From a virus: a stretch of DNA of 64,000 nt. Positions 7,707 to 38,302 of the stretch are shown piece by piece; position 1 is the first letter of the stretch, and every line of letters begins with the position of its first letter. The stretch spans positions 11,134 to 75,133 of IMG/VR virus record IMGVR_UViG_3300050821_005035. One strand, written 5' to 3'. The notes under the pieces were generated by a model. That model did not search any database, was not told the DNA's origin, and was given only the letters and a program-made list of their open reading frames with translations. The translations under genes and the position numbers were made by a program.

Positions 7707-8179
7707 CAGCTGTTGATGCGCCTTACCCAGCCGCTGACGAAGACGCTCGTCTCTGGCTTGTTGTTGACCACGTTCATGCAGTGGTTTATTAAAATCGTGC
7801 GGTACGCGGGGAGCAGGTTCGCGTTCTGGTTCACGGCAGACAGCGTGCCGGGGCCGAACTCGCCGTCGGTGACCAGACTGACTTTGTTCACCAGCGTGAT
7901 CTGCAGCATCTTGACAGCGGTCTTGACTCCGAAGAGCACGCCCATATCGAAAAGTTTTTCAGCTATCGCCTGGTCGACGATCTGGGTGTAGAACTGGTTC
8001 CAGTAATGCGCAGCGTAATAAGCAATGGCGTGTTCCTGGGTAACGGTTTTCATATCGACTCCAGGCATGTCGGCTTGGGTGATGCCGTATTTCGTAGCCC
8101 CTCCTGGGTCGTTCGGGCTGTCAACGAATCCACCCTCGTGAATTAAGGTTTTCTGAACAGCCTGAGTAAAGTCTGCCAT
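7706..8179 (-). CDS. endolysin, glycoside hydrolase family 108
   Basis: HEGGFVDSPNDPGGATKYGIT catalytic motif, DG.FGPGTL and C-terminal F..GW..R; start re-assigned to MADFT behind a GAGGAG RBS. Confidence 0.9.
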   Translation of the reverse strand: MADFTQAVQKTLIHEGGFVDSPNDPGGATKYGITQADMPGVDMKTVTQEHAIAYYAAHYWNQFYTQIVDQAIAEKLFDMGVLFGVKTAVKMLQITLVNKVSLVTDGEFGPGTLSAVNQNANLLPAYRTILINHCMNVVNNKPETSVFVSGWVRRINS

Positions 8180-8940
8180 AGTGATCTCCTCTCGATTTTG
8201 AATTCGGAAGTCTGACGGCCCTTCCAGTTGGTGCCCATCCCGGCGTCTTCCGACTCCAAGTGGTAGCATACAATTTCTGGAACAAATCCGCGCCTGCCGC
8301 GAGGCCACTGCTTAGCGAACAGCATATCAGTGCGGCCCGCGTCGCTGTGCGCCTTCGGGTAACGGTAAACGCTGCTGACCCAAGGGTGCCACAGCTGGAA
8401 GAATCCTATCGGTATCCACCCGGTATCGTGCGCCATGACTCGGGTCGCGATATCGAACTCGCAGTTGTTCAAGTGGATGTAAGCCTCGTCCTCGTGTTGA
8501 AGCTTGGGGGAGTGGAGGAAGTTGCCCCACGCTCGGGCGCCCTTGACGTTGAAACGGTCGGAGCCGTAAATCATACCCTTATCGAGGCAGGCGCGCTCTA
8601 AAAGTCTTCGGGTTTGGGGAGGGAGCCAGATGTCTGCGTCCAAGTGTAGGACCCAGCCGTCCAGGTCGAGGTGAGAGAGGCCGAGGTCGATAGCGTCGCC
8701 CTTGAACATCCCGGGGTCGCTCAGCTGGGGGCATATCACGCACTGGACGTGGTAGAACTCGCACAGCTTCCGGGTCTTACGATCTTCCTTGCTGGTGACC
8801 ACCACCAGCTTATCGAACAGTTGTTTGTTGTTGGGGAGGGTGTAAGCGAGGAAGTCAGAATATTCCCGGCACACGATCACGCACTCTAGCTTGAAGTTCT
8901 TTTCTCTCTTCTCTTCTCCGCACTTTTCCATATGATACAT
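8143..8940 (-). CDS. GT-A fold glycosyltransferase (GT2-like)
   Basis: FKGDAIDLGL...WVLHLDADI (DxD motif); own promoter TTGACA-17-TACGGT at 8966..8994. Confidence 0.7.
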   Translation of the reverse strand: MYHMEKCGEEKREKNFKLECVIVCREYSDFLAYTLPNNKQLFDKLVVVTSKEDRKTRKLCEFYHVQCVICPQLSDPGMFKGDAIDLGLSHLDLDGWVLHLDADIWLPPQTRRLLERACLDKGMIYGSDRFNVKGARAWGNFLHSPKLQHEDEAYIHLNNCEFDIATRVMAHDTGWIPIGFFQLWHPWVSSVYRYPKAHSDAGRTDMLFAKQWPRGRRGFVPEIVCYHLESEDAGMGTNWKGRQTSEFKIERRSLWQTLLRLFRKP

Positions 8941-8990
8941 CCGGCCCCCTATTAGCGACTCCCTTACCGTATCACACTTTCGGAAATTTG

Positions 8991-9935
8991 TCAACCTATT
9001 TCTAGCTCCGCGTCGATCATCATCCGGACCAGTTCGTTGAATCGCACTTTTGGCTCCCAACCCAGTACCCGGCGAGCCTTGCTAGAGTCGCCGATCAGAA
9101 CGTCTACCTCGGTTGGGCGGTACAGCCTCTCGTCGGTCTCAACGTGCTTCCGCCAATCTAGGTTGAGATATCCGAATGCCTCGTCAAGAAACTCTTTTAC
9201 GGAGTGCGCTTCCCCTGTTGCGATCACGTAGTCGTCCGGGAACGGCTGCTGGAGCATCAGGTGCATAGCCTCCACGTAATCTCCTGCGAATCCCCAATCT
9301 CGCATGGCGTCTAGATTGCCGAGGAACAACTTATCTTGCAAGCCTCGGGAGATGCGAACTGCGGCTTTCGTTATCTTTCTCGTAACGAAAGTTTCGCCGC
9401 GCCGGGGTGACTCGTGGTTGAAGAGGATGCCGTTGCACGCGAAGGTACCGTAAGCCTCCCGATGATTTACTGCAGACCAGTACGCGAACAGCTTGGCGAT
9501 AGCGTACGGTGAGCGGGGGTGGAACGGGGTGCTCTCGTTAGTGGCCGTCGTATAGACCCCGCCATACAGTTCCGAACTGCTGGCTTGATAAAATTTTATG
9601 CCCTTTTCTTTAATGGCTTCCAGTATGTTAAGGGCCGCGATCCCTGTGGCCTCTGCGGTGACGACCGGGATGTCGAAGCTGGTGCGAACCTGGCTTTGCG
9701 CGGCCAGGTGATAAACCTCGTCCGGCCCGATCATGTCGATGGTGTTCGTGGTGGAACTGGCGTCGGTCACGTCGCCGTAATGCAAGTGCAGGTCTCTGAA
9801 TATGTGGTCAATCCGGCTGGTGTTGATCGAGGAGGAGCGGCGGATAATCCCGTGGACCTCGTAACCTTTGGACAACAAGAGTTCTGCGAGGTATGAGCCG
9901 TCCTGCCCGTTTATGCCCGTTATCAAAGCCTTCAT
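8991..9935 (-). CDS. gmd: GDP-mannose 4,6-dehydratase
   Basis: [66 protein letters not shown]. Confidence 0.97.
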
Positions 9936-10738
9936 GACGCCCCCTCCAAGTTCAGCTTCTCAATCAGCCATTTCGTCTTCAATGTGTGGTATTCAGGTGA
10001 GCGGTGGTTCCAGTTCGACGCGCGCAAGTAGTGAATCCCGATAGGCTTGTCGTTTATGGAAATATTCTCGTACTCGGACGGATGAAAGTCGGTCGTCGGG
10101 TCGTCTGGAACGAAGTACTGCTGGATAAGAGTCGGATTCAGTTCCGGGTGAGATTGCAAGTAGAAGAAGCTCTGCCCTCCGATGTCTGTGACTATCCCGT
10201 TCACGAAGCTGCCCCACCAGTTGATTTGCTCCGGGTTCGGAAGTCTCGACATGTCGGCCAGCACCAGCGCGTCGTGCATGTGAATCCCGCCCAGGTTGGG
10301 GCGAGACTGCGGTATAAAGCACAGCGGCGTCGTTACCAGGTAGTCAGTCAGCTTGATAGGCTGGGTGAAGAACATGTCCGGGTGGAGGAGGCAGATGGCG
10401 CCCTTCTCTTTCATAATGTGGAACTCCCACGTATAAAAGCACCCGTAACAACCAGCGCAGTTGGGATTGCTCCAAGAGCCTTGGCGGTTGAATACCGTGC
10501 ACGACTTCTCTACAGCGTTGCACTTGTCTTCCAAGGACTGGACCCGCTCGACGTCGAATACCGCGATTCCAAGCCTCCTGCATGTCTCGTCGATCTTGAT
10601 ACGTTCCGCTGGACGGTCAAACTTGGCGTTGTTTAAGATCGTAAACGTGAAGTCCTCTTGGATATACTTCCAGAAAGACTTCAGCTGCAGTTCGATTAGG
10701 TCCGACCGGTTGCTCGTGAACGCGAATATGTTAATCAT
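9932..10738 (-). CDS. putative GT-A glycosyltransferase
   Basis: Position in the glycan island; degenerate DxD region LLHPDMFF. Confidence 0.45.
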
Positions 10739-11667
10739 CTGCTCTCCTGTGCTAGCTTGGCGCCGTCCAATAGGTTGTCGATTTTGTTTAAGTAGGTGTG
10801 GTTTTTGGCGACCTCATCCATCAGCGCGTGGAGAGTTTCCGGTGTGGTTCTAGATAGTTGTTCTCTCGCGTCATAAAACAGCGCGCGTGTATCCCAGTTA
10901 TAAATCAGCTTTCCACGGAAAATCTCGTTAGCCCAAGGGTTGTTGGTCGCGCACATCTGGCCGTAAGACAGCGCCTTGAAGACCCGACACGGCATGTACC
11001 CGACCTTGATTTGATACGCTAGGGAGATCGCTGGCGCGATATATGAGGCCTGCACCAGACGTACGTTCTCTTCCACAGATACGGGGGAGCCGCCGAATCC
11101 GCCGACCAGCTTAAAGTTGATTCCACTTTCTTTGCAGGCTGCAGCGAACGGAGCTAGCTCTGGTACCGAAGTGCCCACGTAGTTGACGTCCCGGCTCCAG
11201 TCTCGAAAGACCTTGCTCGGCTTGTTCGCCATAATCTCGTGAGGCAGGAGGTCTGTGGCCCAGCGGAAGACTACAGCGTCGTAAGAGTCCCAAGGCTGGG
11301 GGAAGAAGAACGCGTCCTTGCTCAGTTCCACCGCGTTCGAGGGTAGCTCCATGCTGTTCACGTAAAGGCCGTAGTTGATAGTTAAAAAGCCCTTCGTGTA
11401 CTCTTTAGCCCGGGCTTCCATGTTGTGGACCGCGTAAATGCAGTCTGTCCGTAGAGGCATCCCCTTTACAGCGTACTCCATGCTGATGAAGAAGGTGTTG
11501 GAGAAATCTATCTTAGAGATGTCGTCGTGCGCGTCCAGCCAAAGGACCTGGCGCTCCGGGAATCTGAACTTAAGCGCGCGGTAAAAGGCCTCCAGTATGT
11601 GACGGAAGGAGTTGTACGCTCCGCTTTTAAATCCCCAAACGCAGAAGTTGCAGTTCTCCAGCTTCAT
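10735..11667 (-). CDS. putative GT-B glycosyltransferase (CgeB-like C-terminus)
   Basis: NYVGT, PCRVFKALSYG and HTYLNKI motifs. Confidence 0.6.
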   Translation of the reverse strand: MKLENCNFCVWGFKSGAYNSFRHILEAFYRALKFRFPERQVLWLDAHDDISKIDFSNTFFISMEYAVKGMPLRTDCIYAVHNMEARAKEYTKGFLTINYGLYVNSMELPSNAVELSKDAFFFPQPWDSYDAVVFRWATDLLPHEIMANKPSKVFRDWSRDVNYVGTSVPELAPFAAACKESGINFKLVGGFGGSPVSVEENVRLVQASYIAPAISLAYQIKVGYMPCRVFKALSYGQMCATNNPWANEIFRGKLIYNWDTRALFYDAREQLSRTTPETLHALMDEVAKNHTYLNKIDNLLDGAKLAQESR

Positions 11668-12845
11668 TTGTATCCCAGGAAATATCCGTGAATAAGCTCG
11701 CCTACGTATCGAATGTCTTCAGGAGTTAGGTTCTGATGAATCCCGATCATGAACCCGCTGCGGGCCAGGTTTTGAGAGACCGGGTACTGCTCCATCATCC
11801 GGGGGAAAAGTTTCCTGTATGCGGGACTTTCCAAAAGTGGAAACATGTGGCGGGTTTCCACGCCGTGCTCTTCCAGATACATGAGCAGCTTCTCCCTGTC
11901 TACATACGGCTTGCAGATAATCGGGAACATCATCCACGAGTGAGTCGAGTCGTAAGGGACGTAAGGAAGTTGAATCTCCGAGATGCCGGAAAGAAGATTT
12001 ATCAGCTGGCTCGCGTTCGCCTGCCGTTTTGCTGCGTTTTGAGAGAAGTGTCCCAGTTCCGCTAGCGCCAGCGCGGCCTCTATTTCCGTTGCCCTGTAAG
12101 AATATCCGACCCGGTCGAACTTGAATCGGCGCTCGACTATGTTTTGAAGACCAGAACCTGTCAGCCCGTTGGCCGCGTCGATGCTCGAATACACGCTGTC
12201 GCGCCCGTGAGCCATTAAGGAGCGGCACAGTTCGGCCAGCTTACCATCGTTGGTTGTAACCAGACCGCCTACGCCGCCGACTATGTGGTGGTTGACGTAT
12301 GTGCTGAAGCATCCCATGTCCCCGAAGCTACCCACTGACTTTCCGTCAACTGTAGACCCAACCGATTCGCAGCTGTCCTCGATGACCTGCAGGCTGTGAC
12401 TCTCGGCGATGTACATAATCTCAGGCATCTCTGCGGGTAGTCCGAAGAGGTGAACCGGGATAATTGCGCGAGTTTTCCGTGTGATCTTCTCTCCTATTTT
12501 GCCTGAAGCCATATTGAAGGTTCTAGGATTGACGTCGACAAAGACCGGGACCATGTTGTTTTGAAGGACGATGTTGGATGTTGCGATGAAGGTCGTTGCG
12601 GGGACCAGAACCTCGTCGCCGTCTTTGTATCCGTGAACTTCTTTCAACGCTGTTAGCGCGACTTGGAGCGCGCTCGTTCCGCTGTTCATGAAGATGCCAT
12701 GCTTGCAGCCGTGCATCGCTGCGAACTTCTCCTCGAACTCTCGCGTGTACTTTCCGTATGAAAGCCTGTTCGTGTCGAGGCAGTCGTTCACATACCTCTT
12801 GCCTTGATCTGAGATAGACAGCGTTCCCAGCGTAATTTTTCTCAT
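11664..12845 (-). CDS. DegT/DnrJ-fold PLP/PMP enzyme, ColD-like sugar 3-dehydratase
   Basis: NSGTSAL, IEDSCES; FSTYVNHHIVGGVGG has His where aminotransferases have the Schiff-base Lys; no Cys cluster after HGRD as in RfbH/E1. Confidence 0.75.
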   Translation of the reverse strand: MRKITLGTLSISDQGKRYVNDCLDTNRLSYGKYTREFEEKFAAMHGCKHGIFMNSGTSALQVALTALKEVHGYKDGDEVLVPATTFIATSNIVLQNNMVPVFVDVNPRTFNMASGKIGEKITRKTRAIIPVHLFGLPAEMPEIMYIAESHSLQVIEDSCESVGSTVDGKSVGSFGDMGCFSTYVNHHIVGGVGGLVTTNDGKLAELCRSLMAHGRDSVYSSIDAANGLTGSGLQNIVERRFKFDRVGYSYRATEIEAALALAELGHFSQNAAKRQANASQLINLLSGISEIQLPYVPYDSTHSWMMFPIICKPYVDREKLLMYLEEHGVETRHMFPLLESPAYRKLFPRMMEQYPVSQNLARSGFMIGIHQNLTPEDIRYVGELIHGYFLGYK

Positions 12846-13411
12846 CGTCCCCCCGTGAACATGCTGTTCGGTCCTAACCACGATTCTCTGGCGGTTCTGG
12901 CGAACTTGTCACGGTCAGATAGAATCGGGTTATCCGTCAAAGGCCAGTCGATGCCGATGTCTGGGTCATTCCAAAGGACCGCCCGGTCTTCGCCGACGTA
13001 CTCGTCGCAGTTATATAGAACGATTGTGTTGGGTTCCAAGGCGCAGTATCCGCGCGCAAATCCTGCTGGCGCCCAGACTTGATAATTATTACGCTCGTGA
13101 GCGATGACGTTGTGGTACCTCAAAAATGTGGGAGAATTCATGCGGATATCGACGGCCACCAGGTAAGCCGCGCCGTTGATGACCTGCATCAGCTTCCCCA
13201 TCGGCGGGTCTAGCTGGTAGTGAAGGCCCCGGATGACTCCGCGCTCCGAGCGGGAGACCATCTGTCGAAGGACGCGGGACGGGAAACAAAACAGTGGGTC
13301 GTCTTGTAGCCGGGTCACAGTTAACGAGCCTCGGTTATCTGAGAAGGTTGTTGGTTGAATGACCTTGACTTCTCCGTTGAAGTGCTCGTCTACAATTTCA
13401 AAGAGTCTCAT
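12842..13411 (-). CDS. rmlC: NDP-4-keto-6-deoxyhexose 3,5-epimerase (RmlC family)
   Basis: DNRG, GVIRGLHYQ, VAVDIR..SPTF, WAPAGFARGY, WNDPDIGIDWP, LSDRD. Confidence 0.9.
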   Translation of the reverse strand: MRLFEIVDEHFNGEVKVIQPTTFSDNRGSLTVTRLQDDPLFCFPSRVLRQMVSRSERGVIRGLHYQLDPPMGKLMQVINGAAYLVAVDIRMNSPTFLRYHNVIAHERNNYQVWAPAGFARGYCALEPNTIVLYNCDEYVGEDRAVLWNDPDIGIDWPLTDNPILSDRDKFARTARESWLGPNSMFTGGR

Positions 13412-14397
13412 AGTCCACCTTTATGCCACTCGATTGTGTTTCTTAATCCCTCTTCCAGTCCCACAAAATGTGCTTTCTTAAACTCGTTCATAACCCGCCA
13501 GACGTCCATCACGACGTTGCCTGACGCGCCTGCCATCTGGTTTGAGCCGGTAAAGAGTCGGGAGCCGGATAGCCGGGCGATCTCGCAGGCGACGTTCTCG
13601 ATGGTGTAGCTGTTTGGAGAGCCGACATTGTACACGGCCTTCGTGCCGTGGAGGAGAATATTCCACATGATCTCGACCGCGTCTCTAATGTAGCAGAAGG
13701 TACGTAGCTCGTCCCCGGAAAATTTCATCGCAACCACCCCGTCTTTCAAAGACTGGTCGATGAACGTGCTGACCGCTCTGGAATCGCCTCGTCGAGCGCC
13801 AGGCCCGTATACGAGAGACAGCCTTGCAGACTGCGCGTCGACGACTCCGGTTTCACGGAACGCGTTTACGACAGCCTCTCCGCAGCGTTTGCCTTCGATG
13901 TACCCGGCCCTGGGGTGATACGGGTTAGTGGTTCCGATCTGATACTCGTCCGCGTTACTCAGCCCGCTGTAAACCTCGGAGGAGCTAGCGAAGAGAAACT
14001 TTCCACCAGGCTTCAAATATTGTAGCAGCTGGCGGGTCCACTCCACGTTGATGCGAATGGTCTCCGCTGGATTCTTTGTGAACCGGGAAGGCTGCGCGTA
14101 CCCGGCGAGATGAATCACCGCGTCTAGGTCGGTGAAGACATTCTGTTCTGATAACAGCTGGATATCATCCAGGCAGGCGATCTCCTTGGTGTGGTCCTCT
14201 GGCTCCGAGTGGCAGTAGCCGTACGCCTTAATCTTCATACCGTCGTTCTTCAAGAGACCCAGGGTCGCTAGGAAGTGCGTCCCGATCTGGCCTGTGGCGC
14301 CGGTGACCAGGACAGACTTTCCCTCCAGCCAGCTGAAGTCCACGGCCTCGATGACCTTGTGCGCGTCCGAGTAGATGATGCCAAGCCTATTTTTCAC
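13408..14397 (-). CDS. NAD-dependent sugar epimerase/reductase (extended SDR)
   Basis: VLVTGATGQIG, HLAG, FASSSEVY, YIEGK; GTG start behind GGAG. Confidence 0.9.
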   Translation of the reverse strand: MKNRLGIIYSDAHKVIEAVDFSWLEGKSVLVTGATGQIGTHFLATLGLLKNDGMKIKAYGYCHSEPEDHTKEIACLDDIQLLSEQNVFTDLDAVIHLAGYAQPSRFTKNPAETIRINVEWTRQLLQYLKPGGKFLFASSSEVYSGLSNADEYQIGTTNPYHPRAGYIEGKRCGEAVVNAFRETGVVDAQSARLSLVYGPGARRGDSRAVSTFIDQSLKDGVVAMKFSGDELRTFCYIRDAVEIMWNILLHGTKAVYNVGSPNSYTIENVACEIARLSGSRLFTGSNQMAGASGNVVMDVWRVMNEFKKAHFVGLEEGLRNTIEWHKGGL

Positions 14398-14926
14398 TAT
14401 AGTAGTCTCCGAATTCCACGCATATAGTAGCACGTCCGTCCGTTCTTGTCAAGGCCTTTTCGTAGGCCGGGAAGATGTCCTCTGGCTCGTCTAGCCGGAT
14501 GACCTCGACCGTCGTCAGCATTTGTCTCAGCGGTTCTGTGAAGTCGCCGACATGCTGCGCTTGAGGATGCAAAGGCCTTTCACTCCCTATTCCCACTCGA
14601 ACAATTACATTAGGGCAATAACCATTCTGGCTCATTTGAGAAAGTTTGTCAAGGTGTAAAATCAGCTGATTCATGGCGAGCAACAAAAAGTTGTACCGGG
14701 GATATATTGTCACCGGGATGAAGCCAGCGAGGGCCAGACCGATACTCGCTCCTAGCTGTAATTCTTCCGCAACGGGAAATTCTGTGAGCTTTTCTTTAGG
14801 AACATTGACGAGCGTGCCGCTCATACCGGTTCCAGGATAAGCGACCGCTTGCCCTAAGAAAATCGTGCGAGGGTCGGCTCCCAGATAATCCATAGCTCTG
14901 GTTAGTTCTTGTTGGTATTTTCCCAT
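14387..14926 (-). CDS. ThDP-dependent enzyme, pyrimidine-binding subunit (E1-beta/transketolase-like)
   Basis: IFLGQAV, EFPVAEELQLGASIGLALAG, AMNQL, QH motif; lacks the C-terminal domain. Confidence 0.85.
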   Translation of the reverse strand: MGKYQQELTRAMDYLGADPRTIFLGQAVAYPGTGMSGTLVNVPKEKLTEFPVAEELQLGASIGLALAGFIPVTIYPRYNFLLLAMNQLILHLDKLSQMSQNGYCPNVIVRVGIGSERPLHPQAQHVGDFTEPLRQMLTTVEVIRLDEPEDIFPAYEKALTRTDGRATICVEFGDYYSEK

Positions 14927-15555
14927 CAGAAGGTCACTCTTTTCCCTGCCCCAGCGTGGGGCCACTTCTCGGCCTTGTATCTAAAATGCGTAACGTGATC
15001 TGAGAACTTACTTTTGTGTTCTGCGTCTGTTGTAAACTCGTCGCCGAATTCGTTCTTCAATCCCCACGCCAGTCGAGTATCCGTGCAGACAGAAAGGTTG
15101 TTGTCCTCGACGTGGAAGTATACTGGTAGATCAAAATTTTCTACGTACTTAATGCTTTCGTAAGCTATCCCTGTTTCGGCTGTCATGTCACCTAGAAAAA
15201 TATGGACGCGCTCATTACCACATCTGCGCTGGATAGCCATGCCAAGGCCTACACCGATGGGTAAAACCCCACCAATGATTGCACTAGATAAAATGCGGTA
15301 CTCAGGAAAGCTGAGAGCAATTGAGTATCCAGCCATAATCTTGGTTTTCAACTCTGCGGGAGGCACTCCTTTTAAAAGGCAGGGGTAATGGCTTCTCCAC
15401 GAACAAAGCACCCAATCTTGGGCGCGTATGCCTTTGAAGATTTCGATCAGTTCTTTCTCCCCGCCAGAGTAAAGATGAGTAGGACTTCTTATCAGACCAG
15501 CGTTAAACTCAGCGGCGATGTCATCTTCGAATGCTATTAGTTCTTCCGGTGTCAT
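14926..15555 (-). CDS. ThDP-dependent enzyme, diphosphate-binding subunit (E1-alpha-like)
   Basis: HLYSGGE, WRSHY, SAIIGG, GDMTAETG...EDNN thiamine-diphosphate motif. Confidence 0.85.
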   Translation of the reverse strand: MTPEELIAFEDDIAAEFNAGLIRSPTHLYSGGEKELIEIFKGIRAQDWVLCSWRSHYPCLLKGVPPAELKTKIMAGYSIALSFPEYRILSSAIIGGVLPIGVGLGMAIQRRCGNERVHIFLGDMTAETGIAYESIKYVENFDLPVYFHVEDNNLSVCTDTRLAWGLKNEFGDEFTTDAEHKSKFSDHVTHFRYKAEKWPHAGAGKRVTF

Positions 15556-15556
15556 G

Positions 15557-16354
15557 TTATCTCCAGAGGTCCGGGTGCAGCAGGTGAATCAACCGCACCA
15601 GTCCGCCGTGTACTTTCGTGGCTTGTGTTATCATAGAAACTTTTTTGACTCGGTAGTGGAACAAAGGCTCGTTTACCACCCCGACGGTCCAACCGCGCTT
15701 CAAGATGTCGAGCCACATATTCCAGTCCTCGTATCCGAGAACTTTCGTGCTGCCCGCGACGTCGACGAAGATAGTCTCGTATCCGGGGGTTTGTTCGAAG
15801 GCCGTGCGGCGAATCAAAGAGCATACAGGAAGGTCATTGCTGACCATCTCGCTCGCGAGAGACAGTCCCTTCGGCGGGATGCGGTTGTGCAACAGTCCCT
15901 CGTACTGCATGTCCGTCGACACGATGCCGATGCCTTGGTTAACCATCAAGGGAACTGTGCGCTCCAAGTAGTTGGCCTCGATCCAGTCGTCGGAATCGAG
16001 GGGGAGGATAAACTCTCCGTCTCCAGCTTTTATGCCCTCGTTCCTGGACGTTGAGAGGCCTCGGTTCTCCCGGTCAATAATTTTCAGATTCCCGTTGAAG
16101 TTCCAGCACCCGGGGACTGGTTCCATCATCTCAGCTTCCGCGTAACGCTTGACCATCAACTCTCTCATCTCTCCGTTCCAACGGTCTACTATCTCTCGCA
16201 CGACCACCATCGAGTGGTCCGTGGAGCCGTCGTTGACTAGGGTTACATCGAAGTCCGGGTACGTCTGGGCCAACGCAGAATTCAAGCACTGCTCGATAAA
16301 TTCCTCTTGGTTGAAAAGAGGAATCACGATGTTGACTTTGCCGACCTTAATCAT
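15557..16354 (-). CDS. glycosyltransferase family 2
   Basis: IVIPLFNQE, VNDGSTD, NRGLSTSRN, LDSDD, YEDW. Confidence 0.92.
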   Translation of the reverse strand: MIKVGKVNIVIPLFNQEEFIEQCLNSALAQTYPDFDVTLVNDGSTDHSMVVVREIVDRWNGEMRELMVKRYAEAEMMEPVPGCWNFNGNLKIIDRENRGLSTSRNEGIKAGDGEFILPLDSDDWIEANYLERTVPLMVNQGIGIVSTDMQYEGLLHNRIPPKGLSLASEMVSNDLPVCSLIRRTAFEQTPGYETIFVDVAGSTKVLGYEDWNMWLDILKRGWTVGVVNEPLFHYRVKKVSMITQATKVHGGLVRLIHLLHPDLWR

Positions 16355-17064
16355 AGCCTGGTCCACCTTTCGGGTACGATATCCGAGTAATCTACATCTG
16401 GATTTGAGAACCACTTCTTCGGCGCCACAACCAACTTCTGGGGGCCGAGCCACGCTCCCCACCACCCATAGCTGCTGTTGGCGATCACTTGGTACTCGCA
16501 GCTGGAGATAAGCGTTAAGTCCTCGTACTTGTTTCCGCCCTCGATGACCTTGAAGTCGGAGGGAAAGTTTTCCTTACACCATTGGCGGTCATCGGAGAAT
16601 ACCATCACAGGAACAAGTGCTCCCACTTCGCGCCGGATATGGGCGACCCCTTCTCGGTAATAGTCGAGAGTCGGCAGGCCGTGAAAGTGCTCCAGTCCGA
16701 CGTAGTCTTGGCGACGGACGTGAACTGCGATAAAGGGAAGCAGAGGCCTGTTATTGAGAGGGAAGGCCAGACGAACCATCTGAGTGAAATACTTTTCTGA
16801 CTGCCAGTAACCAATCATCGTGCAGTCTTCTGTTGGTTCCAGGTAGCTGGGGTTGTACCTCATGCCGTCTTCATAGACTTCTCTGCCACTCGATTTACCG
16901 TCGGCCTTTATTCCGAAGTATCCGAGAGAGTACTCGCGATGGGTGCCCTCGATCAAATAGGACCTGTCCAGCTGGACCTCATAGCCTCTGTCTTGCAGCG
17001 TCATAGCGAAGGCACACTGAAACATCTGGTTGCATAACCCGCCAAGTAGTCGTACCGTAATCAT
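16351..17064 (-). CDS. glycosyltransferase family 11 (alpha-1,2-fucosyl/colitosyltransferase-like)
   Basis: GGLCNQMFQ, GYWQSEKYF, AVHVRRQDY, FSDD, IANSSYGWWGAWL. Confidence 0.92.
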   Translation of the reverse strand: MITVRLLGGLCNQMFQCAFAMTLQDRGYEVQLDRSYLIEGTHREYSLGYFGIKADGKSSGREVYEDGMRYNPSYLEPTEDCTMIGYWQSEKYFTQMVRLAFPLNNRPLLPFIAVHVRRQDYVGLEHFHGLPTLDYYREGVAHIRREVGALVPVMVFSDDRQWCKENFPSDFKVIEGGNKYEDLTLISSCEYQVIANSSYGWWGAWLGPQKLVVAPKKWFSNPDVDYSDIVPERWTRL

Positions 17065-17756
17065 CGCGCGCCCTTATTCAGCGCCAGAATCTTTGGCGTG
17101 ACGTTCAGTCCCGCTGCCTTCCACTTGTCTGTGTAATACGCGGACGCGCTTTCCGGGTAGCAGTAAGAGGGATCGAGAACCGTACAAGGCGGGTGCTCGT
17201 GAAGGTAGCGATTCAAGTGCGATTCGTCATGCCATACTGCGAGCACTCCGCAAGATTCATCCACACTGATGTGATAAGCTAGATCGGTAGCCATTCTCAA
17301 AAATGTTGAGGTTGCGCCGCCGTTGAATCCCCCACAAAAGTATTTATTTGCAGAACCTGGAGCAATAGAGGCCACTGAGTGTATTCTCCGTTCCGGAGTC
17401 CCGCACGAGCCAACGTATCCTGGGTGCAGGGTAGCGGTTATGCCGTTGGAGAAGACTTCCTCCCCGACCGGAGCGACAAATCGCATATCAGAGTCTATCC
17501 AAAAAACTTGGTCGTACCCTTTCAATAGCCACTCCTGATTCAGAATTGTGTGATACCTGTATAGCGTTTCCTTGGGGAAACCGAGAGCTTTCTTGGTTAG
17601 TACAAATTTCGCATCGAAGGTGCTGGCCGCTTCCAGAGTATCCGTCCACACAATCGCATCGTGTTCGACAAAAAACTCTTGAGCAGATTCCAAAAGTGGT
17701 GGTACGAATGCATGGTACTTTTCTCCTGTGGCGATCACGAGCAGAGCGGTCTTCAC
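17061..17756 (-). CDS. glycosyltransferase family 6 (ABO-like alpha-1,3-Gal/GalNAc transferase)
   Basis: IATGEKY, DSDM, LHPGY, YFCGGFNGG, AVWHDESHLNRY, LDPSYCYPE. Confidence 0.9.
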   Translation of the reverse strand: MKTALLVIATGEKYHAFVPPLLESAQEFFVEHDAIVWTDTLEAASTFDAKFVLTKKALGFPKETLYRYHTILNQEWLLKGYDQVFWIDSDMRFVAPVGEEVFSNGITATLHPGYVGSCGTPERRIHSVASIAPGSANKYFCGGFNGGATSTFLRMATDLAYHISVDESCGVLAVWHDESHLNRYLHEHPPCTVLDPSYCYPESASAYYTDKWKAAGLNVTPKILALNKGAR

Positions 17757-18442
17757 GAATTCACCGTCCGGTACACGAGGTCCGCTGTTTCCATCCAGCG
17801 GTACTCAAGCTTATACCCCGACTTGTACTGCGACGACGGGAAGTGCGACGAGTAAGAGTTAGCAGGCAGGTCGAGCGCGATCATGTCGCCTCTTGCTAGT
17901 TCCTTGCCGAGCACCTGGCCCACCCATAGGTCTTCGGCCCACCCGTGAGGGAACGTGTCCGCGATCACGCACATCGCGTCTCTAGAAAGGAAGTAGCCAA
18001 AACCGCCGCTGGCCCAGGGATAGCACTCCGGGATGTGAGTAACAATGCCACGGCGATCAATCGCGTCGTAAGGGAAGGTCTCGCCTATCGGCTTGCTGAT
18101 CTTGCCCGTGTAGTCGTAACGCTGGTAGCCGCAGGTCAGCAGCTGGTTCACCTTCACGTACGTGTCGGTGTCCGCTAAAAACAGATGATCTACGTTCTTC
18201 CCAAAGGCCCACTGACATATCGCTCGTGTCTTTGATGGCAGAGAATTGTAGTCATCTTCTGTATCGACTACGACCTCATCGCTTTTATAAACACGACTAG
18301 TCCTTCCATCTCTTTCTGCTCCCACGAAAAATTTTAGATGCGCTTTGCCTCTCAGTTCCTGCCCCCACGTTTTTCTAATCACGTCGTGGTACCCGTTATC
18401 TAAGTCGGCCTTGCAGCTTTTAATTGCTATAATTAGGCTCAT
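17753..18442 (-). CDS. glycosyltransferase family 31 (beta-1,3-galactosyltransferase-like)
   Basis: IRKTW, FFVG, DDYNSLPSKT, DTDTYV, YPWASGGFGYFLS, EDLWVG. Confidence 0.85.
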   Translation of the reverse strand: MSLIIAIKSCKADLDNGYHDVIRKTWGQELRGKAHLKFFVGAERDGRTSRVYKSDEVVVDTEDDYNSLPSKTRAICQWAFGKNVDHLFLADTDTYVKVNQLLTCGYQRYDYTGKISKPIGETFPYDAIDRRGIVTHIPECYPWASGGFGYFLSRDAMCVIADTFPHGWAEDLWVGQVLGKELARGDMIALDLPANSYSSHFPSSQYKSGYKLEYRWMETADLVYRTVNS

Positions 18443-18939
18443 TTTATCTCCGGTTTGAAAGACGTTCCACAATTTGGGCAGCATACTTTACGTACTCGAT
18501 TACCCGCTTGTTCTTTTGATGTTGCCCATCGAACGTTTCCTGGTTCGTAATTACCATCATTATCAATTCTATCGACAGAGTGTTTTAAACTAGGTCGAGG
18601 TCCAATATCCTGAATAAACTCGCGGAAATCTGTGAATAAAAATTTTATTCCACGGCCTCCGTAGTTCATCCAAGCCTTGTGCTTCGGATTCGTACACAGC
18701 AGCTTTGCAGACGCAAAAATTCTGTGCTCTCTTGTTCCGTAAACTCCGTGCGTTATTTTGTAGCAGGTATGGCACGCTTTTGTATCCCCGCTATTTAAAG
18801 CCGCCGTTCTAACTTTGGCAGTACGTCCACATATACAAAAACACAGCCACACGGTCGCTCTTTGCTGCCTTCCTGCAGGCCATGCAACCGTTAGTTTTCC
18901 AAAAATCATTCCTGATAAATCTTCGAAATCCGACCTCAT
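18439..18939 (-). CDS. HNH homing endonuclease
   Basis: FGKLTV, WLCFCICG, YGGRGI, SVDRIDNDGNYEPGNVRWAT; AT-richer than its flanks. Confidence 0.88.
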   Translation of the reverse strand: MRSDFEDLSGMIFGKLTVAWPAGRQQRATVWLCFCICGRTAKVRTAALNSGDTKACHTCYKITHGVYGTREHRIFASAKLLCTNPKHKAWMNYGGRGIKFLFTDFREFIQDIGPRPSLKHSVDRIDNDGNYEPGNVRWATSKEQAGNRVRKVCCPNCGTSFKPEIK

Positions 18940-19703
18940 AACTTAACCTCTTCGTCGAAGCCAAAATATTTCTTAATTCCCCGCTTCTTCATCATCAGCG
19001 CGTGCCCGGTCGTGAGGGCACGTTGTCGGAACGCTTTGTATCTGGGGTCCTGCTTCGAGGCATCATATTCCATCTGATTTATATTTGCTTCCTGAAGGAA
19101 CGCGACTACGATTTTTGCGGCCTTCAAATCAAGAAAGAAATCCACGTGTTCCCCGCCAATTTTAACTATACTTTCATCCCACGGTACGGCTCGAAGAATA
19201 CTGGTGCGCGCTAGAAAATAATTGGCCGCGATGTCGACCTTCCAAAGTTTGAACGGCAGAAGACGAAAAGGCAAATCCCCTAATGGGCGGCGATGTTCTT
19301 TAATATACTCGCCTGGTACGTATTCAAGGGTTCCTTCATAACATCTATCATTGACTCTGCCAGCGACTACGTCGATTTCGTATCCCATGTTTACTTCTGA
19401 TGAGCTTAATGCCTTTTCCATCTTGATAATCCCTTCTCGCGCTTCGTCTGTTGAGAAGTCAAAATCATCTGAGCCAATTAGCGTGTACCGCGTTTGAACT
19501 TGCGCGACGCCCGCGTTCCGCTTTGCGGTGAGACCTGAGTCGTAGGGCAGATAAATCTCGTTCGCCGTTTGAGGAATCACTCCGTCGTCCGATACGACTA
19601 TGACATCGCACTCCGGCAGGTTCTCCCGGATGCCAGCGAGGCAGTCCCTTAGGTAGCCTCGACGGTGGAATGTCGGGATGACGATTGTTATGTCACCTAG
19701 CAT
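18936..19703 (-). CDS. GT-A glycosyltransferase resembling the GT12 (B4GALNT) catalytic domain
   Basis: ITIVIPTFHR, GLTAKRNAGVAQVQTRY, DDFDF, NYFLART, EHVDFFLD. Confidence 0.7.
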   Translation of the reverse strand: MLGDITIVIPTFHRRGYLRDCLAGIRENLPECDVIVVSDDGVIPQTANEIYLPYDSGLTAKRNAGVAQVQTRYTLIGSDDFDFSTDEAREGIIKMEKALSSSEVNMGYEIDVVAGRVNDRCYEGTLEYVPGEYIKEHRRPLGDLPFRLLPFKLWKVDIAANYFLARTSILRAVPWDESIVKIGGEHVDFFLDLKAAKIVVAFLQEANINQMEYDASKQDPRYKAFRQRALTTGHALMMKKRGIKKYFGFDEEVKL

Positions 19704-20040
19704 ACACGTCCTGATTTCCCGATGTACCTTATGCAGCGCGATATTTCCTTAGACGTTGGAGGTGTGTAAACCGGATAAAATGTCTGCTTCACCGTGACGT
19801 CGTACTCGGCTGGACTCAAGCATCCACCCGGGCCATAAACTCGGAAACGGTAATTGTAAGAGGCTCCGTCGTGATAGAAGCCGGGAGGGAACTCTGCCAT
19901 ATCAGCTTCCGGCTGCTTCTCTTTTAATGCGGTGAGCGATAGAGTGTATATCCATCGCTCAACGGACTCAGCCGCGTACTCGGAGAACTCTTTCACCAAC
20001 TCTTTCGAGTCGGTCTTGTGGACGGAGTGGAACTCCCAGT

Positions 20041-21260
20041 TCACAACAGTCCTTTGTTGATGCGCTTCGACACGTCAGCGCGGCGCCGGGCTGCACGGTC
20101 GCTGGCCTCGCGCTCTTCCCTGATATCTCGGGCGGCTAGCACGCGTGAGCGTTGGAGGTTAGCCTCGAACGATTCCTTCGAGCCGTCGAGCAGGAAGTGT
20201 AGGGATTCAAATACTTCCCTGGTCTTCTGGATGAGAATCAGCTTGATTCGTGAGTAATGCGGCTTCAGCCTTTTCTTCGCGTAAGACTGTCGGCCCATGA
20301 CCTGGCCTCTGGTAGGCTTCTCGTCCGGTCGCATGCAGGTGCGGTAGTCGGGGACCAACTCGCCCTTGTCATCCTCTCGGAAGTATTCGTAGTCGCCGAT
20401 ACTGTACGTGAAAACTTGCTCGCACTTCTTCTCGTTCTTCCGGTGACGGGTGCTGCAGATGTGGCACTTGAACATTTTCCCAAGTTCCGGGTGACGCTCG
20501 CTGTAAGACAGATTTCCAATGCTGGCTAGCGCCTTGTCAACTGCTGCCTGCAGTTCTATTGATGCGATAAACTCTTCCATTAAACTGACCTCCCGTAGTC
20601 AAAGTCTCGTCCTTCTCCGCGCATCGCGTTGTTGTCCGGCTCAAATCTGATGGGCACTGGCGAGTAAGGCGGGTAGTTCGCGTCCTCGTACTCGGCCCAG
20701 GCCTCTTCGAACTCTTCGTTGGTCACGCCGACAGCCAGCTGGCGAAGGCGGTCTTTGATAATCAACATCCCGTACTCCTCGATTCTTTCCACGGCCTCTT
20801 TGACTCCTGAGACATACGCGCGCTCGATGTGCTCACTTTCAATCGTCGCCACGCGGGGTGTCTTCGGCGCGAGCCACTTGCGCTTCTTCCTCTCGCTCTC
20901 GTCGACCGAGTCAGCCGAGGTGTAAACTATGTCGGTGCCGGGGATGTCTTCCGTATAAGACTCCTCCTGCTTCCCGGTTCCGGAGCACTTGGCGCAAATC
21001 TTAACGTCCTGCCCGCCCTTGCAGTGGGAGCAGATAACGTCTCTAACGCCACGGGTGCGCGACACCACAATCCACTTGGCCTCGCCGCGCTTCACGATGG
21101 CAGTGGCCTCCGTGATGTTGATAATCAGGCGGCAAGAGCACTTCGGCGCCGGTGGTTCTTTCTCTTCTAAGACTACTGCTTCCTGCCCACGGCATGAGTG
21201 AATTTTCGAAACGTACATAGGGTCTCCGGTGTTGCTCACCAGTTCCCCCGTTGGGGTCAC
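20041..21260 (-). other. two hypothetical zinc-finger proteins (20041..20580, 20580..21260)
   Basis: CxxC motifs, one DnaJ-like (CSHCKG...CAKCSGTG). Confidence 0.55.
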
Positions 21261-21673
21261 ATATTCGGTGGTCGTCTCAGCGGTCCGGTATTATTGGCGC
21301 GCTGTCCTCTGGCGACTCGGCGCATGATTTTAAACGCCATCTTGGTTGCGTTAAGGGTCATGCCCATCTCCTTGGCTACCTGGGAGTTGGACATCTGGAC
21401 CCGATAGTAGAGATGAATAAGGCGGACCCAGCGGCCCGCACGGATAGCTTGCGCGTTGTTGGTGCGCAGCTTCGGGAAGGAGCGGAGAAGAACGGTCCGG
21501 ACTTCCTTGTCGCTCAACGTCCACTCTGGTATATTGCGCTCCCTGGTGCGAACCTTCTTGATCTTGTGCGCGCTCATGAAGCCGTCGTCTGTGTCCAACC
21601 GCGACCGTAGTTTCTTCATATCCCTTCTTCTCTGGTCACTTGCCATCGGCTTCCTCCAGTGTTCCGTTGTCAT
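21257..21673 (-). CDS. HTH protein (sigma region 4-like)
   Basis: LYYRVQMSNSQVAKEMGMTLNATK. Confidence 0.55.
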   Translation of the reverse strand: MTTEHWRKPMASDQRRRDMKKLRSRLDTDDGFMSAHKIKKVRTRERNIPEWTLSDKEVRTVLLRSFPKLRTNNAQAIRAGRWVRLIHLYYRVQMSNSQVAKEMGMTLNATKMAFKIMRRVARGQRANNTGPLRRPPNM

Positions 21674-21787
21674 TCAATTCGGGTTCCTCCTGCAGTCCAA
21701 GCTGGCGCTCTCCCAGCCCGTGACTTTTTAGCACGTCCTCCCAGTACGGGAAGTCCTCCCTGCTCAAATCCGGCTTACTTATCGCTC

Positions 21788-22987: not shown

Positions 22988-22989
22988 TC

Positions 22990-38224: not shown

Positions 38225-38302
38225 TGGAGCGAAGGGGTCGGAGTTGAACCGCCGTCCGCAGGGGGTTTAAGCCTGCGTGCTCTACCCTTGAACTACCTCC
38301 GC
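38225..38302 (-). tRNA. non-canonical tRNA-Gly-like gene
   Basis: Acceptor GCGGAGG/CCTTCGC + T-CCA, D-arm GTTC/GAGC, T-loop TTCAACT; 11-nt anticodon loop and bulged T-stem. Confidence 0.8.

Follow-up and report, generated by a model that had tools for sequence, protein, structure and literature searches.

Several described systems come close to the locus presented here. The Prochlorococcus phage P-SSM2, a marine T4-like cyanophage, carries a cluster of gmd, epimerases and glycosyltransferases of families GT2, GT1, GT11, GT6 and GT25. Many bacterial GT6 enzymes bear an NxN motif and are metal-independent. DxD was described as the rule for the phage/Parachlamydia clade of this family (PMC3516806). 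A related DxD enzyme, PaGT6, requires metal and transfers GalNAc to the H trisaccharide, giving the A antigen, but not to LacNAc (PMC3516806).

Among bacteria, E. coli O86 and the A-antigen enzymes of H. mustelae and B. ovatus resemble our locus: a GT11 alpha-1,2-fucosyltransferase and a GT6 alpha-1,3-Gal/GalNAc-transferase, together with a supply of GDP-6-deoxyhexose, cap a Gal-beta1,3-HexNAc core with a branched blood-group structure. The blood-group-B O-antigen locus of E. coli O86, reportedly described by Yi et al. in 2005, is said to contain WbnH/J/K/I with gmd and fcl. In animals, a pair of B4GALNT1 and a GT31-type enzyme makes GalNAc-beta1,4 and then Gal-beta1,3, and the whole ganglio-series/ABO pathway (B4GALNT1, B3GALT4/5, FUT1/2, ABO) draws on the same four CAZy-type families as the phage. 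Finally, the capsid and tail-tube O-glycans of mycobacteriophages and the capsid or fibril glycans of chlorovirus and mimivirus depend, like the island described below, on soluble viral glycosyltransferases and nucleotide-sugar pathways without membrane export genes; the pathways of the chlorovirus and mimivirus systems include viral gmd and the synthesis of rare sugars.

Results

The window, that is the whole stretch of DNA analysed (64,000 nucleotides), comes from an uncultured soil phage with a genome of ~100 kb, represented by a 75 kb contig of ~74% completeness in which most structural genes are missing. The original prediction placed consecutive, coupled genes for GT12-like, GT31, GT6, GT11 and GT2 enzymes, interrupted by an HNH gene, at 15557-19703. 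The minus-strand reading frames were confirmed there, each of the five enzymes scored above the curated Pfam cut-off, against which profile scores were judged, with catalytic motifs intact, and ATGA or GTGA start/stop overlaps at all junctions indicate translational coupling of the island genes. This stretch is the glycosyltransferase half of a larger glycan-synthesis island, which occupies 8143-19703 (~11.5 kb) on a single (minus) strand and encodes at least seven glycosyltransferases together with sugar-precursor genes:

18936..19703, minus strand: GT12-like (B4GALNT1-like) GT-A glycosyltransferase, 255 aa; Pfam Glycos_transf_2, 26.9 bits (cut-off 23.3)
18439..18939, minus strand: HNH homing endonuclease, between the GT12-like and GT31 genes; phrog_374, E 2e-41
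17753..18442, minus strand: GT31 (beta-1,3-Gal/GlcNAc-transferase family); Pfam Galactosyl_T, 40.6 bits (cut-off 23)
17061..17756, minus strand: GT6 retaining alpha-1,3-Gal/GalNAc-transferase, minimal 231-aa DxD type; Pfam Glyco_transf_6, 86.1 bits (cut-off 25)
16351..17064, minus strand: GT11 alpha-1,2-fucosyl/colitosyl-transferase-like, 237 aa; Pfam Glyco_transf_11, 71.4 bits (cut-off 23.9)
15557..16354, minus strand: GT2 glycosyltransferase with LDSDD motif; Pfam Glycos_transf_2, 87.9 bits (cut-off 23.3)
14926..15555, minus strand: ThDP enzyme, E1-alpha-like half; Pfam E1_dh, 1.4e-11; TIGR03182, 4e-17, far below cut-off
14387..14965, minus strand: ThDP enzyme, E1-beta-like half; Pfam Transket_pyr, 4e-7
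13408..14433, minus strand: extended SDR (nucleotide-sugar reductase/epimerase); Pfam Epimerase, 2.5e-39
12842..13411, minus strand: RmlC-like cupin 3,5-epimerase; Pfam dTDP_sugar_isom, 7e-42; TIGR01221, 151.7 bits (cut-off 155.75)
11664..12881, minus strand: ColD/E1-type PMP-dependent nucleotide-sugar 3-dehydratase, DegT fold; Pfam DegT, 5e-98; best NCBIfam match RfbH
10735..11667, minus strand: GT-B-fold glycosyltransferase without Pfam family, 310 aa; AlphaFold pLDDT 91.8
9932..10738, minus strand: GT-A-fold, GT8/GT6-like (retaining-type) glycosyltransferase without Pfam family, 268 aa; AlphaFold model, pLDDT 73.5
8991..9935, minus strand: GDP-mannose 4,6-dehydratase (Gmd); TIGR01472, 479 bits (cut-off 415); Pfam GDP_Man_Dehyd, 1e-128
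8143..9060, minus strand: last island gene, possibly a further GT-A enzyme (weak); Pfam GT2, E 0.012, below cut-off

Two reading frames extend beyond the likely gene starts: that of GT31 is open to 18484, with the likely ATG at 18442 overlapping the upstream HNH stop, and that of GT2 covers 15557-16465, with the likely ATG at 16354 forming an ATGA junction with the GT11 stop. No transmembrane segments were predicted in any island protein. A GH108 endolysin gene (7706-8308; GH108 and PG_binding_3) directly follows the island end, and replication and recombination genes adjoin the island; the phage carries its own replication machinery and also encodes a Mom-type DNA modifier (135 bits).

The GT12-like label was borne out. 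The single sequence matched human B4GALNT1 (PDB 9h6j) with an E value of 7.5e-10, its DDF being aligned to DDDF of the human enzyme, and the profile of the 17-member family reached 2.6e-23 for 9h6j vs 5.5e-5 for the next solved glycosyltransferase; the enzyme is therefore not a generic GT2, and the grouping of 18936-19703 with generic GT2, named in the original prediction as an outcome that would speak against it, was rejected. Among glycosyltransferases, the GT31 profile matched GT31 structures only (B3GALT5 at 8e-10, B3GALT6, C1GalT1, B3GNT2), and the DTD and EDLWVG motifs align with the family. The HNH gene separating these two genes has no homolog in this slot in any relative; the sole HNH match among relatives (in L094) lies ~7 kb away from its glycosyltransferase pair, and in L002, with no HNH gene between, the stop codon of the GT12-like gene overlaps the start of GT31. 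We regard the HNH gene as a selfish insertion that takes no part in the glycan pathway.

The GT6 enzyme is far closer to BoGT6a (4ayj, E 1.3e-31) and human ABO (~1e-23) than to bovine alpha3GT (merely 1e-12), with scores of 113 and 85 bits for ABO/BoGT6a vs 46-51 for alpha3GT. In the alignment its DSD falls on N-A-N of BoGT6a, and WHDES, the catalytic motif, is intact. The DxD motif emphasised in the original prediction is thus present, but it is no surprise, as it had already been described for this clade. For the acceptor it has the same set as BoGT6a and human GTA (His, Gly, Thr, Tyr, Trp and Glu), and its donor motif C-G-G-F compares with L-G-G-F of GTA and A-G-G-L of BoGT6a (both GalNAc-specific) and with H-A-A-I of alpha3GT; donor and acceptor residues are thus of the A-transferase type. 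The fucose-clearance site is probably occupied by Ala (Ala225), as placed by its offset from the conserved C-terminal Lys.

The GT11 protein matched phrog_2644 over its full length (E 1.8e-42) and contains HVRRQDY, GGLCNQMFQ and SSYGWWGAWL motifs. As to the two enzymes without a Pfam family, nearly all top Foldseek matches of the first were GT-B enzymes (SenB, tll1591, OtsA, PimA; TM 0.5-0.6), while the GT8-like protein matched XXYLT1, LgtC, LARGE1, glycogenin and BoGT6a at E 1e-6 to 1e-5, and its nearest Atlas clusters are mostly those of giant viruses, a further likeness to the giant-virus systems.

Gmd would open the donor route. In the 3-dehydratase, His replaces the Schiff-base Lys (FSTYVNHH aligned to FSFFGNK of perosamine synthase). 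The best NCBIfam match of the SDR was dTDP-glucose dehydratase (84 bits, far below cut-off), and no recognisable GDP-fucose synthase was found within the window, whereas fcl is present in the E. coli O86 locus. Since a ColD-type 3-dehydratase is present and GDP-fucose synthase is absent, a 3,6-dideoxyhexose is a likelier donor sugar for GT11 than fucose, and the 6-deoxy sugar is probably colitose-like. A natural alpha-1,2-colitosyltransferase, WbgN, which also accepts GDP-fucose, has been described (PMC12723683).

The same gene set recurs in at least seven related viral contigs, at 41-92% amino-acid identity, so its occurrence is no matter of chance; the four animal-type families, whose coincidence had been considered striking, are indeed present together and jointly conserved in one phage lineage. 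From one relative to another the genes stand in shuffled order, which therefore does not reflect the sequence of assembly steps. Accessory sugar genes vary widely: a C-methyltransferase, a CapD-like dehydratase and RmlD occur in L003, while the E1-alpha-like gene and the 8143..9060 gene (85% identical) have homologs in L002 only. Within 10 kb of viral GT6 genes, GT11 was found in 64 of 80 loci (62 on the same strand), gmd in 44 and the GT-B protein in 17. The GT12-like and GT31 genes are adjacent in four bacterial or MAG loci, Terriglobales genomes being among the carriers of the pair, and fused in single bacterial proteins (the 1525-aa ORF of L090, and the proteins P0129, P0130 and P0133), which fits consecutive action. 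In deposited phage genomes, GT12-like matches were limited to Salinibacter phages, and GT31 had none.

Discussion

P-SSM2 shares with our phage a minimal 231-aa DxD GT6 (35% identical) as well as GT11 and gmd in one cluster. It differs in habitat, has an unrelated backbone and gave no tblastn match to the GT12-like or GT31 proteins of the window; ColD-type and ThDP sugar genes are missing from its cluster as annotated. The bacteria named above synthesise the core with GT2/GT4 enzymes and export the unit through Wzx/Wzy, whereas the phage core would depend on the GT12-like and GT31 enzymes, with no membrane machinery. The likeness to animals lies in these enzymes and in the GTA-like residues of GT6: among solved structures, the former is best matched by B4GALNT1, with no other strong match, and the latter by B3GALT5/6. 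Unlike their animal counterparts, the phage proteins (~25-35% identity) are minimal soluble catalytic domains without stem or membrane anchor; a Golgi glycosphingolipid acceptor is impossible, and the deoxy sugar is probably colitose-like. The glycosyltransferase families differ from those reported for mycobacteriophage and giant-virus glycosylation.

We propose, tentatively, a pathway whose steps are deduced from enzyme families and motifs, gene fusions and co-occurrence. Since specificity is not settled by the family to which an enzyme belongs, the donors, linkages and acceptor (virion or host surface) are putative. All island proteins are predicted to be soluble, so that at least seven glycosyltransferases would assemble a hetero-oligosaccharide in the cytoplasm of the host. 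The B4GALNT1-like and GT31 enzymes, as a pair, would make a HexNAc-Gal core. GT11 would then cap O-2 of Gal with a GDP-activated 6-deoxy-L-hexose, a colitose-like and possibly C-branched 3,6-dideoxy sugar supplied by Gmd, the ColD-type 3-dehydratase, and the epimerase, SDR and ThDP branch enzyme. Metal-dependent GT6 could add alpha-1,3-GalNAc onto the capped Gal, producing a branched cap similar to blood group A, and the GT2, GT-B and GT8-like enzymes may contribute further residues. An H-like and then A-like cap is plausible. The predicted A/B-antigen-like glycan thus gains from the GT6 residues, the co-occurrence of GT11 and gmd, and the GT12-like/GT31 fusion, but the product should be larger than the A/B tetrasaccharide, given at least seven enzymes, and a true H or A antigen is unlikely unless the host supplies GDP-fucose, for which the window has no synthase. 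As acceptor, a phage virion protein is our leading guess, as in mycobacteriophages and giant viruses; no Ser/Thr-rich candidate was found in the contig, from which most structural genes are missing.

The same enzymology could instead serve a glycoconjugate of the host envelope (lipid-linked O-unit, LPS core, capsule/EPS or membrane glycolipid), with initiating transferase, flippase and ligase provided by the host, and act in superinfection exclusion, in avoiding adsorption of progeny to debris, or in lysogenic conversion. We consider this somewhat unlikely, though bacterial blood-group mimics on LPS (E. coli O86 WbnI/WbnK, H. mustelae BgtA, B. ovatus BoGT6a) do use soluble GT6/GT11, and the lack of transmembrane segments is compatible with a lipid-linked acceptor, because the glycosyltransferases of O-antigen synthesis, too, are soluble or peripheral. 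Lysogenic conversion is possible in view of a weakly scoring tyrosine recombinase (28.8 bits) that borders the window on the left, and the Terriglobales pair likewise speaks for the host surface. Such clusters were taken as cell-wall modification in the cyanophage literature (PMC12801897), and GT6/GT11 as glycosphingolipid genes in a soil-phage paper (PMC12016548). However, no membrane glycan machinery was found in the contig; neither it nor the complete relative encodes a priming transferase, Wzx, Wzy, WaaL or Gtr-type membrane protein, and proteins with at least five transmembrane segments are absent from the 75-kb contig and the complete 101.7-kb relative. The phage's own replication machinery and contiguity of the island with the lysis gene argue for use in lytic growth, and a foreign O-unit made by seven glycosyltransferases would require a tolerant host export system.

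It is doubtful that the genes form no H-then-A assembly line at all, being a mixed toolkit whose labels reflect only fold ancestry and whose GT6 acts on a non-fucosylated acceptor in unrelated glycan(s). The GT6 family does include alpha3GT, iGb3 and Forssman synthases, which need no fucose, and the unconserved gene order, the divergent accessory genes and, in G004, the fusion of another GT6 domain with GT32 and GT2 domains would suit such a toolkit; but the GT6 scores far favour ABO/BoGT6a, its residues are fucose-compatible as in those enzymes and not Gln/Trp/Trp as in alpha3GT, and 80% of the viral GT6 loci also contain GT11. That the island serves to attach an oligosaccharide to phage DNA, a hypermodification of the kind seen in glycosyl-5hmC and arabinosyl-5hoC systems, is highly improbable: LPS-related phage GT-A/GT-B enzymes are known to decorate DNA with mono- to trisaccharides (bioRxiv 10.1101/2023.12.21.572611; PMC13326640) and replication/recombination genes are adjacent, but no pathway for hydroxylated bases was found: the contig and five relatives lack a thymidylate synthase (ThyA) homolog (the complete relative G004 likewise), neither the contig nor G004 encodes a C5-methyltransferase (present in one of five relatives), TET/JBP dioxygenases are absent from the contig, a Mom-type modifier is already encoded, and all known GT6, GT11, GT31 and GT12 cases have sugar acceptors.

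The reading we prefer, if cautiously, is thus a cytoplasmic hetero-oligosaccharide with a GT12-like/GT31 core and a deoxyhexose and GalNAc cap resembling that of blood group A, which may be carried by a virion protein. DxD in phage GT6, and gmd, GT11 and GT6 together in P-SSM2, were already known; what is new is the conserved pair of GT12-like and GT31 enzymes in a phage lineage.

Position of the island in the phage genome

The window is bases 11134-75133 of its source contig (75,133 bp, IMG/VR), which is estimated to be 74% complete, and from about 49 kb of the window down to position 1 every gene lies on the minus strand. The glycosyltransferase (GT) genes form part of this long array, which is arranged as follows.

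Minus strand, in this order: PrimPol-helicase, split family-A DNA polymerase, SLT lysozyme, UvrD helicase, endonuclease VII, PD-(D/E)XK nuclease
Minus strand, after the nuclease: four small genes of no assigned function, then the glycan island (8143-19703), then a GH108 endolysin
18936-19703, minus strand: GT12-like enzyme
18439-18939, minus strand: HNH protein
17753-18442, minus strand: GT31 enzyme
17061-17756, minus strand: GT6 enzyme
16351-17064, minus strand: GT11 enzyme
15557-16354, minus strand: GT2 enzyme
Minus strand, downstream of the GT block and coupled to it: split ThDP enzyme (E1-alpha-like and E1-beta-like), extended SDR, RmlC-like epimerase, DegT-fold enzyme, two proteins without a Pfam family (10735-11667, 310 aa; 9932-10738, 268 aa), Gmd, weak GT2-like protein
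Plus strand, right end: terminase and portal

The PrimPol protein has remote phage matches only, which indicates that the backbone is without a cultured relative, and none of 50,697 phage records matched the island in a megablast search. In a search of sequencing runs, the DNA runs containing this stretch were all from soil except for one aquatic run, a small share; no RNA run was listed. An integrase search found no serine recombinase; a weak match to tyrosine recombinases (28.8 bits, in a 305-aa frame) is present just left of the window, at 10477-10917 of the source contig (G000:C1), and homologous weak matches occur in two relatives, G002 and G004. Elsewhere on the minus strand the window encodes a Mom-family DNA-modification protein (36860-37639, 135 bits), next to which lies an odd tRNA (38225-38302; tRNA-Leu(taa) according to ARAGORN), and a 535-aa protein with an N-terminal HTH (38348-39955) that matches phrog_1745, 'DNA transfer protein', with E 1.8e-159.

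Composition of the island

All six open reading frames of the original prediction are present as described, with each glycosyltransferase above its Pfam gathering score, and the island proved to be larger than first described. Every junction is a start/stop overlap (ATGA or GTGA), which places the likely start of the GT31 gene at 18442 and that of the GT2 gene at 16354. A promoter and terminator scan of positions 5000-24900 gave counts equal to those of shuffled sequence. Two of the downstream proteins were assigned by their predicted structures. The model of the 310-aa protein (pLDDT 91.8) has GT-B enzymes as nearly all of its top structural matches, so that we are confident in regarding it as a GT-B glycosyltransferase; the 268-aa protein (pLDDT 73.5), which matches XXYLT1, LgtC and LARGE1, is by its modelled fold a GT-A enzyme of GT8/GT6-like type, and its closest clusters in the protein atlas are mostly from giant viruses. 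Together with the GT block, these two folds bring the predicted complement of the island to at least seven glycosyltransferases, accompanied by what appears to be a private GDP-sugar pathway.

Comparison with the relatives indicates that the HNH gene is an insertion. An HNH gene between the GT12-like and GT31 genes is absent from every relative, the sole HNH match among the loci compared (in L094) lying some 7 kb away from the GT pair there, and in the closest relative, L002, whose GT6 is 92% identical, the GT12-like stop codon overlaps the GT31 start. The equivalent slot is filled by a DHH/DHHA1 phosphoesterase in L003 (8356-9312) and L091 (8741-9612), and, as judged by position only, in L004 and L005, where the slot frames are of about 317-344 aa; in L007 such a phosphoesterase (7552-8484) lies just upstream of the GT12-like gene. 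One may speculate that this enzyme clears nucleoside-diphosphate by-products.

The GT12-like enzyme and its pairing with GT31

Before the profile comparison, the GT12-like assignment was the riskiest of the family calls, Pfam detecting only a weak GT2 N-terminus. The concern that this protein might group with generic GT2 enzymes was not borne out, because both the single sequence and the profile specifically favor human B4GALNT1: residues 5-193 align with residues 245-433 of that enzyme (9h6j) at 7.5e-10, and a 17-member profile matches residues 245-432 with 85.8 bits (E 2.6e-23), whereas the next solved glycosyltransferase reaches only 25.8 bits (5.5e-5). The aligned motifs are DDF/DDDF, NYFLART/NFFLART and HxxFFLD. 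The GT31 protein exceeds the Pfam cut-off (PF01762, 40.6 bits against 23). Its single-sequence search of the PDB was weak and yielded nothing useful; a profile of 11 homologues matched, among glycosyltransferase structures, only those of GT31, namely B3GALT5 (8e-10), B3GALT6, C1GalT1, B3GNT2, B3GLCT and Manic Fringe. Its DTD (DxD) and EDLWVG (ED-x-x-VG) motifs align with these structures and vary little or not at all.

With 2349 representative clusters at E < 1e-10, the GT12-like family is large, and it is wholly uncharacterised, the large relatives being all metagenomic and either named 'GT2 family' or left without a name. We found no description of a phage GT12-like enzyme in the literature. 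Among 50,697 deposited phage genomes, tblastn with the GT12-like protein retrieved only a group of Salinibacter phages, nearly identical to one another and about 32% identical to the query, in which the homolog is annotated as hypothetical and every neighboring gene likewise; the same search with GT31 gave no match. A search of genome contigs with the single GT12-like protein found no relative, and the alignment-based search found seven contigs with such a gene, four of them Acidobacteriota metagenome-assembled genomes (Acidobacteriaceae or Terriglobales). A GT31-like match adjoins the GT12-like gene in four of these seven loci, and in one of them, the Terriglobales contig L090, the two are domains of a single 1525-aa multi-glycosyltransferase; more GT12-like/GT31 fusions exist, one of which also has a Gb3-synthase-type domain. 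In the L090 protein (4890-9467 of the locus, on a 300-kb contig), the two domains form the C-terminal part, and the gene lies directly downstream of two encoding proteins of about 700 aa with an eCIS_core (DUF4157) domain. This domain is typical of cargo of contractile injection systems.

Predicted activity of the GT6 enzyme

Membership of the GT6 protein in its family is clear (PF03414, 86.1 bits against a cut-off of 25). It aligns over its full length with BoGT6a of Bacteroides ovatus (E 1.3e-31), with human ABO transferases at about 1e-23, and far more poorly with bovine alpha-1,3-galactosyltransferase (1e-12). The catalytic WHDES segment is intact and aligns with W189-E192 of BoGT6a, and the DSD motif, falling on N95-A-N97 of that enzyme, is an invariant DxD across 15 relatives. 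This motif had been singled out as notable in the original prediction. It is instead what should be expected of a phage enzyme, since a minimal, DxD-bearing, metal-dependent GT6 clade, lacking the C-terminal membrane-binding BHB domain and typified by phage P-SSM2 and Parachlamydia, has already been defined (Thiyagarajan et al. 2012; PMC3516806). The present protein shows the traits of that clade, being 231 aa long (as is the P-SSM2 enzyme) and having DSD with no hydrophobic or extra C-terminal domain.

In BoGT6a, 2'-fucosyllactose is bound by His122, Thr134, Tyr153, Trp189 and Glu192, and alpha-1,3-galactosyltransferase, which rejects fucosylated acceptors, differs at three positions (His to Gln, Gly124 to Trp, and Ile228/Ala343 to Trp); the Parachlamydia enzyme converts H acceptors to A antigen and does not use LacNAc (PMC3516806). 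At the aligned positions the phage GT6 has His, Gly, Thr, Tyr, Trp and Glu, the His and Gly by direct alignment. The small residue compatible with fucose (position A7) would be Ala225, which precedes the invariant C-terminal Lys by three positions and is placed by offset only. With this proviso for A7, the residues corresponding to His122, Gly124 and A7 make up the set compatible with 2'-fucosyl-galactose and not the Gln/Trp/Trp of alpha-1,3-galactosyltransferase, and it is reasonable to suppose that the enzyme needs a 2-O-substituted galactose as its acceptor. The donor-specificity tetrad, C-G-G-F, resembles those of the GalNAc-specific human A transferase (L-G-G-F) and BoGT6a (A-G-G-L), in contrast to H-A-A-I of the Gal-specific alpha-1,3-galactosyltransferase, and UDP-GalNAc is therefore the favored donor.

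GT11 and the probable nature of the deoxy sugar

The GT11 protein belongs by its Pfam score to the family of alpha-1,2-fucosyltransferases (PF01531, 71.4 bits against 23.9), is matched end to end by the phage family phrog_2644 and has the N-terminal GGLCNQMFQ, the HVRRQDY (HxRRxD) GDP-sugar motif and SSYGWWGAWL; a PDB sequence search returned no match. It is the sole enzyme of the island from a family known for GDP-sugar use. Gmd, which scores above its equivalog cut-off (TIGR01472, 479 bits), yields GDP-4-keto-6-deoxymannose. In the DegT-fold enzyme, N-H-H aligns with the N-K of perosamine synthase, so that His replaces the Schiff-base (PLP) lysine, and the best NCBIfam match is RfbH; these two features point to a 3-dehydratase of the ColD/E1 type. 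A Gmd equivalog and a DegT-fold enzyme with His for Lys, the pair that marks a colitose or 3,6-dideoxyhexose pathway, thus occur together in the island, in which NCBIfam models recognised neither a ColC-type reductase nor a GDP-fucose synthase (fcl). Both GDP-colitose and GDP-fucose are used as donors by WbgN, a natural alpha-1,2-colitosyltransferase (PMC12723683). Given this precedent, GT11 as the only member of a GDP-sugar-using family, and the combination of Gmd, ColD-type enzyme, epimerase, reductase-like SDR and ThDP pair with no recognisable GDP-fucose synthase, we infer that the 'H-like' substituent in this phage would be a 3,6-dideoxyhexose, to which the ThDP enzyme may add a C-branch. 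Where relatives have gmd together with an epimerase, the substituent could be fucose or a different 6-deoxyhexose.

The ColD-type dehydratase, RmlC-like epimerase, SDR and split E1-alpha/beta ThDP enzyme lie together at 11664-15555, and this gene content suggests a C-branched 3,6-dideoxyhexose made by a yersiniose-like logic on a GDP scaffold. Among the relatives, the ThDP pair is common to the window and L002 only.

Occurrence in related loci

Co-occurrence was counted in 80 IMG/VR loci obtained in a scan with GT6 as the query. Within 10 kb of GT6, 64 of the 80 have GT11 (62 of them on the same strand) and 44 have gmd; 19 loci have GT31, 17 the GT-B protein, 14 the GT8-like protein and eight the GT12-like gene. 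The five families GT12-like, GT31, GT6, GT11 and GT2 occur together in seven IMG/VR loci (L002-L007 and L010), and also in L091. The backbone of the window is shared by L002-L005, L007 and L091 (UvrD 56-83% and PD-(D/E)XK nuclease 57-90% identical). L091 (CABMCB010000010.1), binned as 'uncultured archaeon LFW-28', has the same island and endolysin, with UvrD 70% and the nuclease 66% identical; on these identities it is clearly related to this phage, and its assignment to an archaeal assembly is probably a binning error.

The order of the block varies, being GT6-GT11-GT2 in the window, GT6-GT2-GT11 in L003 and L004, and GT31-GT11-GT6-GT2 in L091, so gene order carries no information on the pathway. 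Accessory sugar genes differ as well: L003 has RmlD-like, CapD-like and C-methyltransferase genes, L008 an epimerase right after gmd, and L091 none. In L005 (11460-13538), a locus of the complete relative genome G004, another GT6 domain is fused with a GT32-type DXD domain and a GT2 domain in one protein of 692 aa.

A module of gmd, GT11 and GT6 is not new in phages, as one annotated cluster of P-SSM2 holds gmd, epimerases, GT2, GT1, GT11, GT6 and GT25, and GT6 and GT11 figure among the phage auxiliary genes reported in a soil-virome study of 2025 (PMC12016548). The main interest is that in soil phages and Acidobacteriota this module is joined by the GT12-like/GT31 pair, which is conserved and in some cases fused. 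As to the product, the A/B-antigen-like glycan originally proposed stands in part: the best reading of the genes is that an H-like and then an A-like cap would be placed on a core made by the GT12-like and GT31 enzymes. It departs from the proposal in that the sugar of the H-like step is probably of colitose type and that more residues would be added.

Possible acceptors

A virion protein is the leading, though tentative, candidate for the acceptor of this capped glycan: mycobacteriophages and giant viruses offer a parallel, one of the enzymes has its closest clusters mostly among giant viruses, and the island lies immediately ahead of the lysis gene. No Ser/Thr-rich structural candidate was found in the contig, which is without most structural genes. 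The one match of such a search in G004 is P0135 (446 aa; G004 60676-62016, L005:16539-17879), encoded about 3 kb downstream of the glycan island there; it has a signal peptide and a long stretch rich in Ser, Thr, Asn and Gly, and no homolog in the window or the other loci.

The enzymes may instead act on a lipid-linked species of the host and rely on host export; the weak tyrosine recombinase leaves room for lysogeny. An autonomous surface-polysaccharide pathway is counted against by the lack of TM segments in any island protein and of proteins with at least five TM segments in the contig or G004. With no such protein, and no recognised fcl beside gmd, the island differs from a Wzx/Wzy-type O-antigen locus (e.g. 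that of E. coli O86), which has a priming transferase, a flippase and a polymerase; having no TM helices, it also differs from a gtrABC-type serotype-converting module, which consists of the membrane flippase GtrA, the bactoprenol transferase GtrB with its TM helices and a polytopic Gtr(type), and its GT2 protein shows only weak N-terminal matches to GtrB-like PHROGs.

Evidence is against phage DNA as the acceptor, since the phage already has a Mom-type DNA modifier and a source of hydroxylated bases, as in phage DNA-glycosylation clusters, has left no trace in the contig (no ThyA homolog, C5-methyltransferase or TET/JBP dioxygenase), ThyA being likewise absent from five relatives and a C5-methyltransferase present in only one of the five, with neither found in G004, which is complete and terminally redundant (101.7 kb).

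Implications

Taken to its full extent, the virion-protein reading would have soil phages, probably of Acidobacteriota, coating their virions with a branched, blood-group-A-like epitope in which a rare colitose-like, possibly C-branched sugar takes the place of fucose, made by minimal soluble GT12, GT31, GT11 and GT6 enzymes; this phage and soil-bacterial toolkit, with GT12-like and GT31 often fused, would then be a prokaryotic reservoir for vertebrate GT6 and possibly GT12. We consider this whole scenario improbable. The island is in any case a concrete candidate example of complex glycosylation carried out by a phage whose host is of Gram-negative type; to our knowledge, data on complex phage glycosylation have so far come from mycobacteriophages only. 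As a compact group of small soluble enzymes, it could also be used to prepare ganglio- and blood-group-type glycans, and analogues of them with colitose, by chemo-enzymatic synthesis. Phage GT6 enzymes have been put forward as models for the ancestral enzyme of the ABO family in vertebrates (PMC3516806). Here GT6 occurs with GT11 and with specific relatives of B4GALNT1 and B3GALT, which extends the question of ancestry beyond one enzyme to an entire animal-like set circulating among soil viruses and Acidobacteriota.
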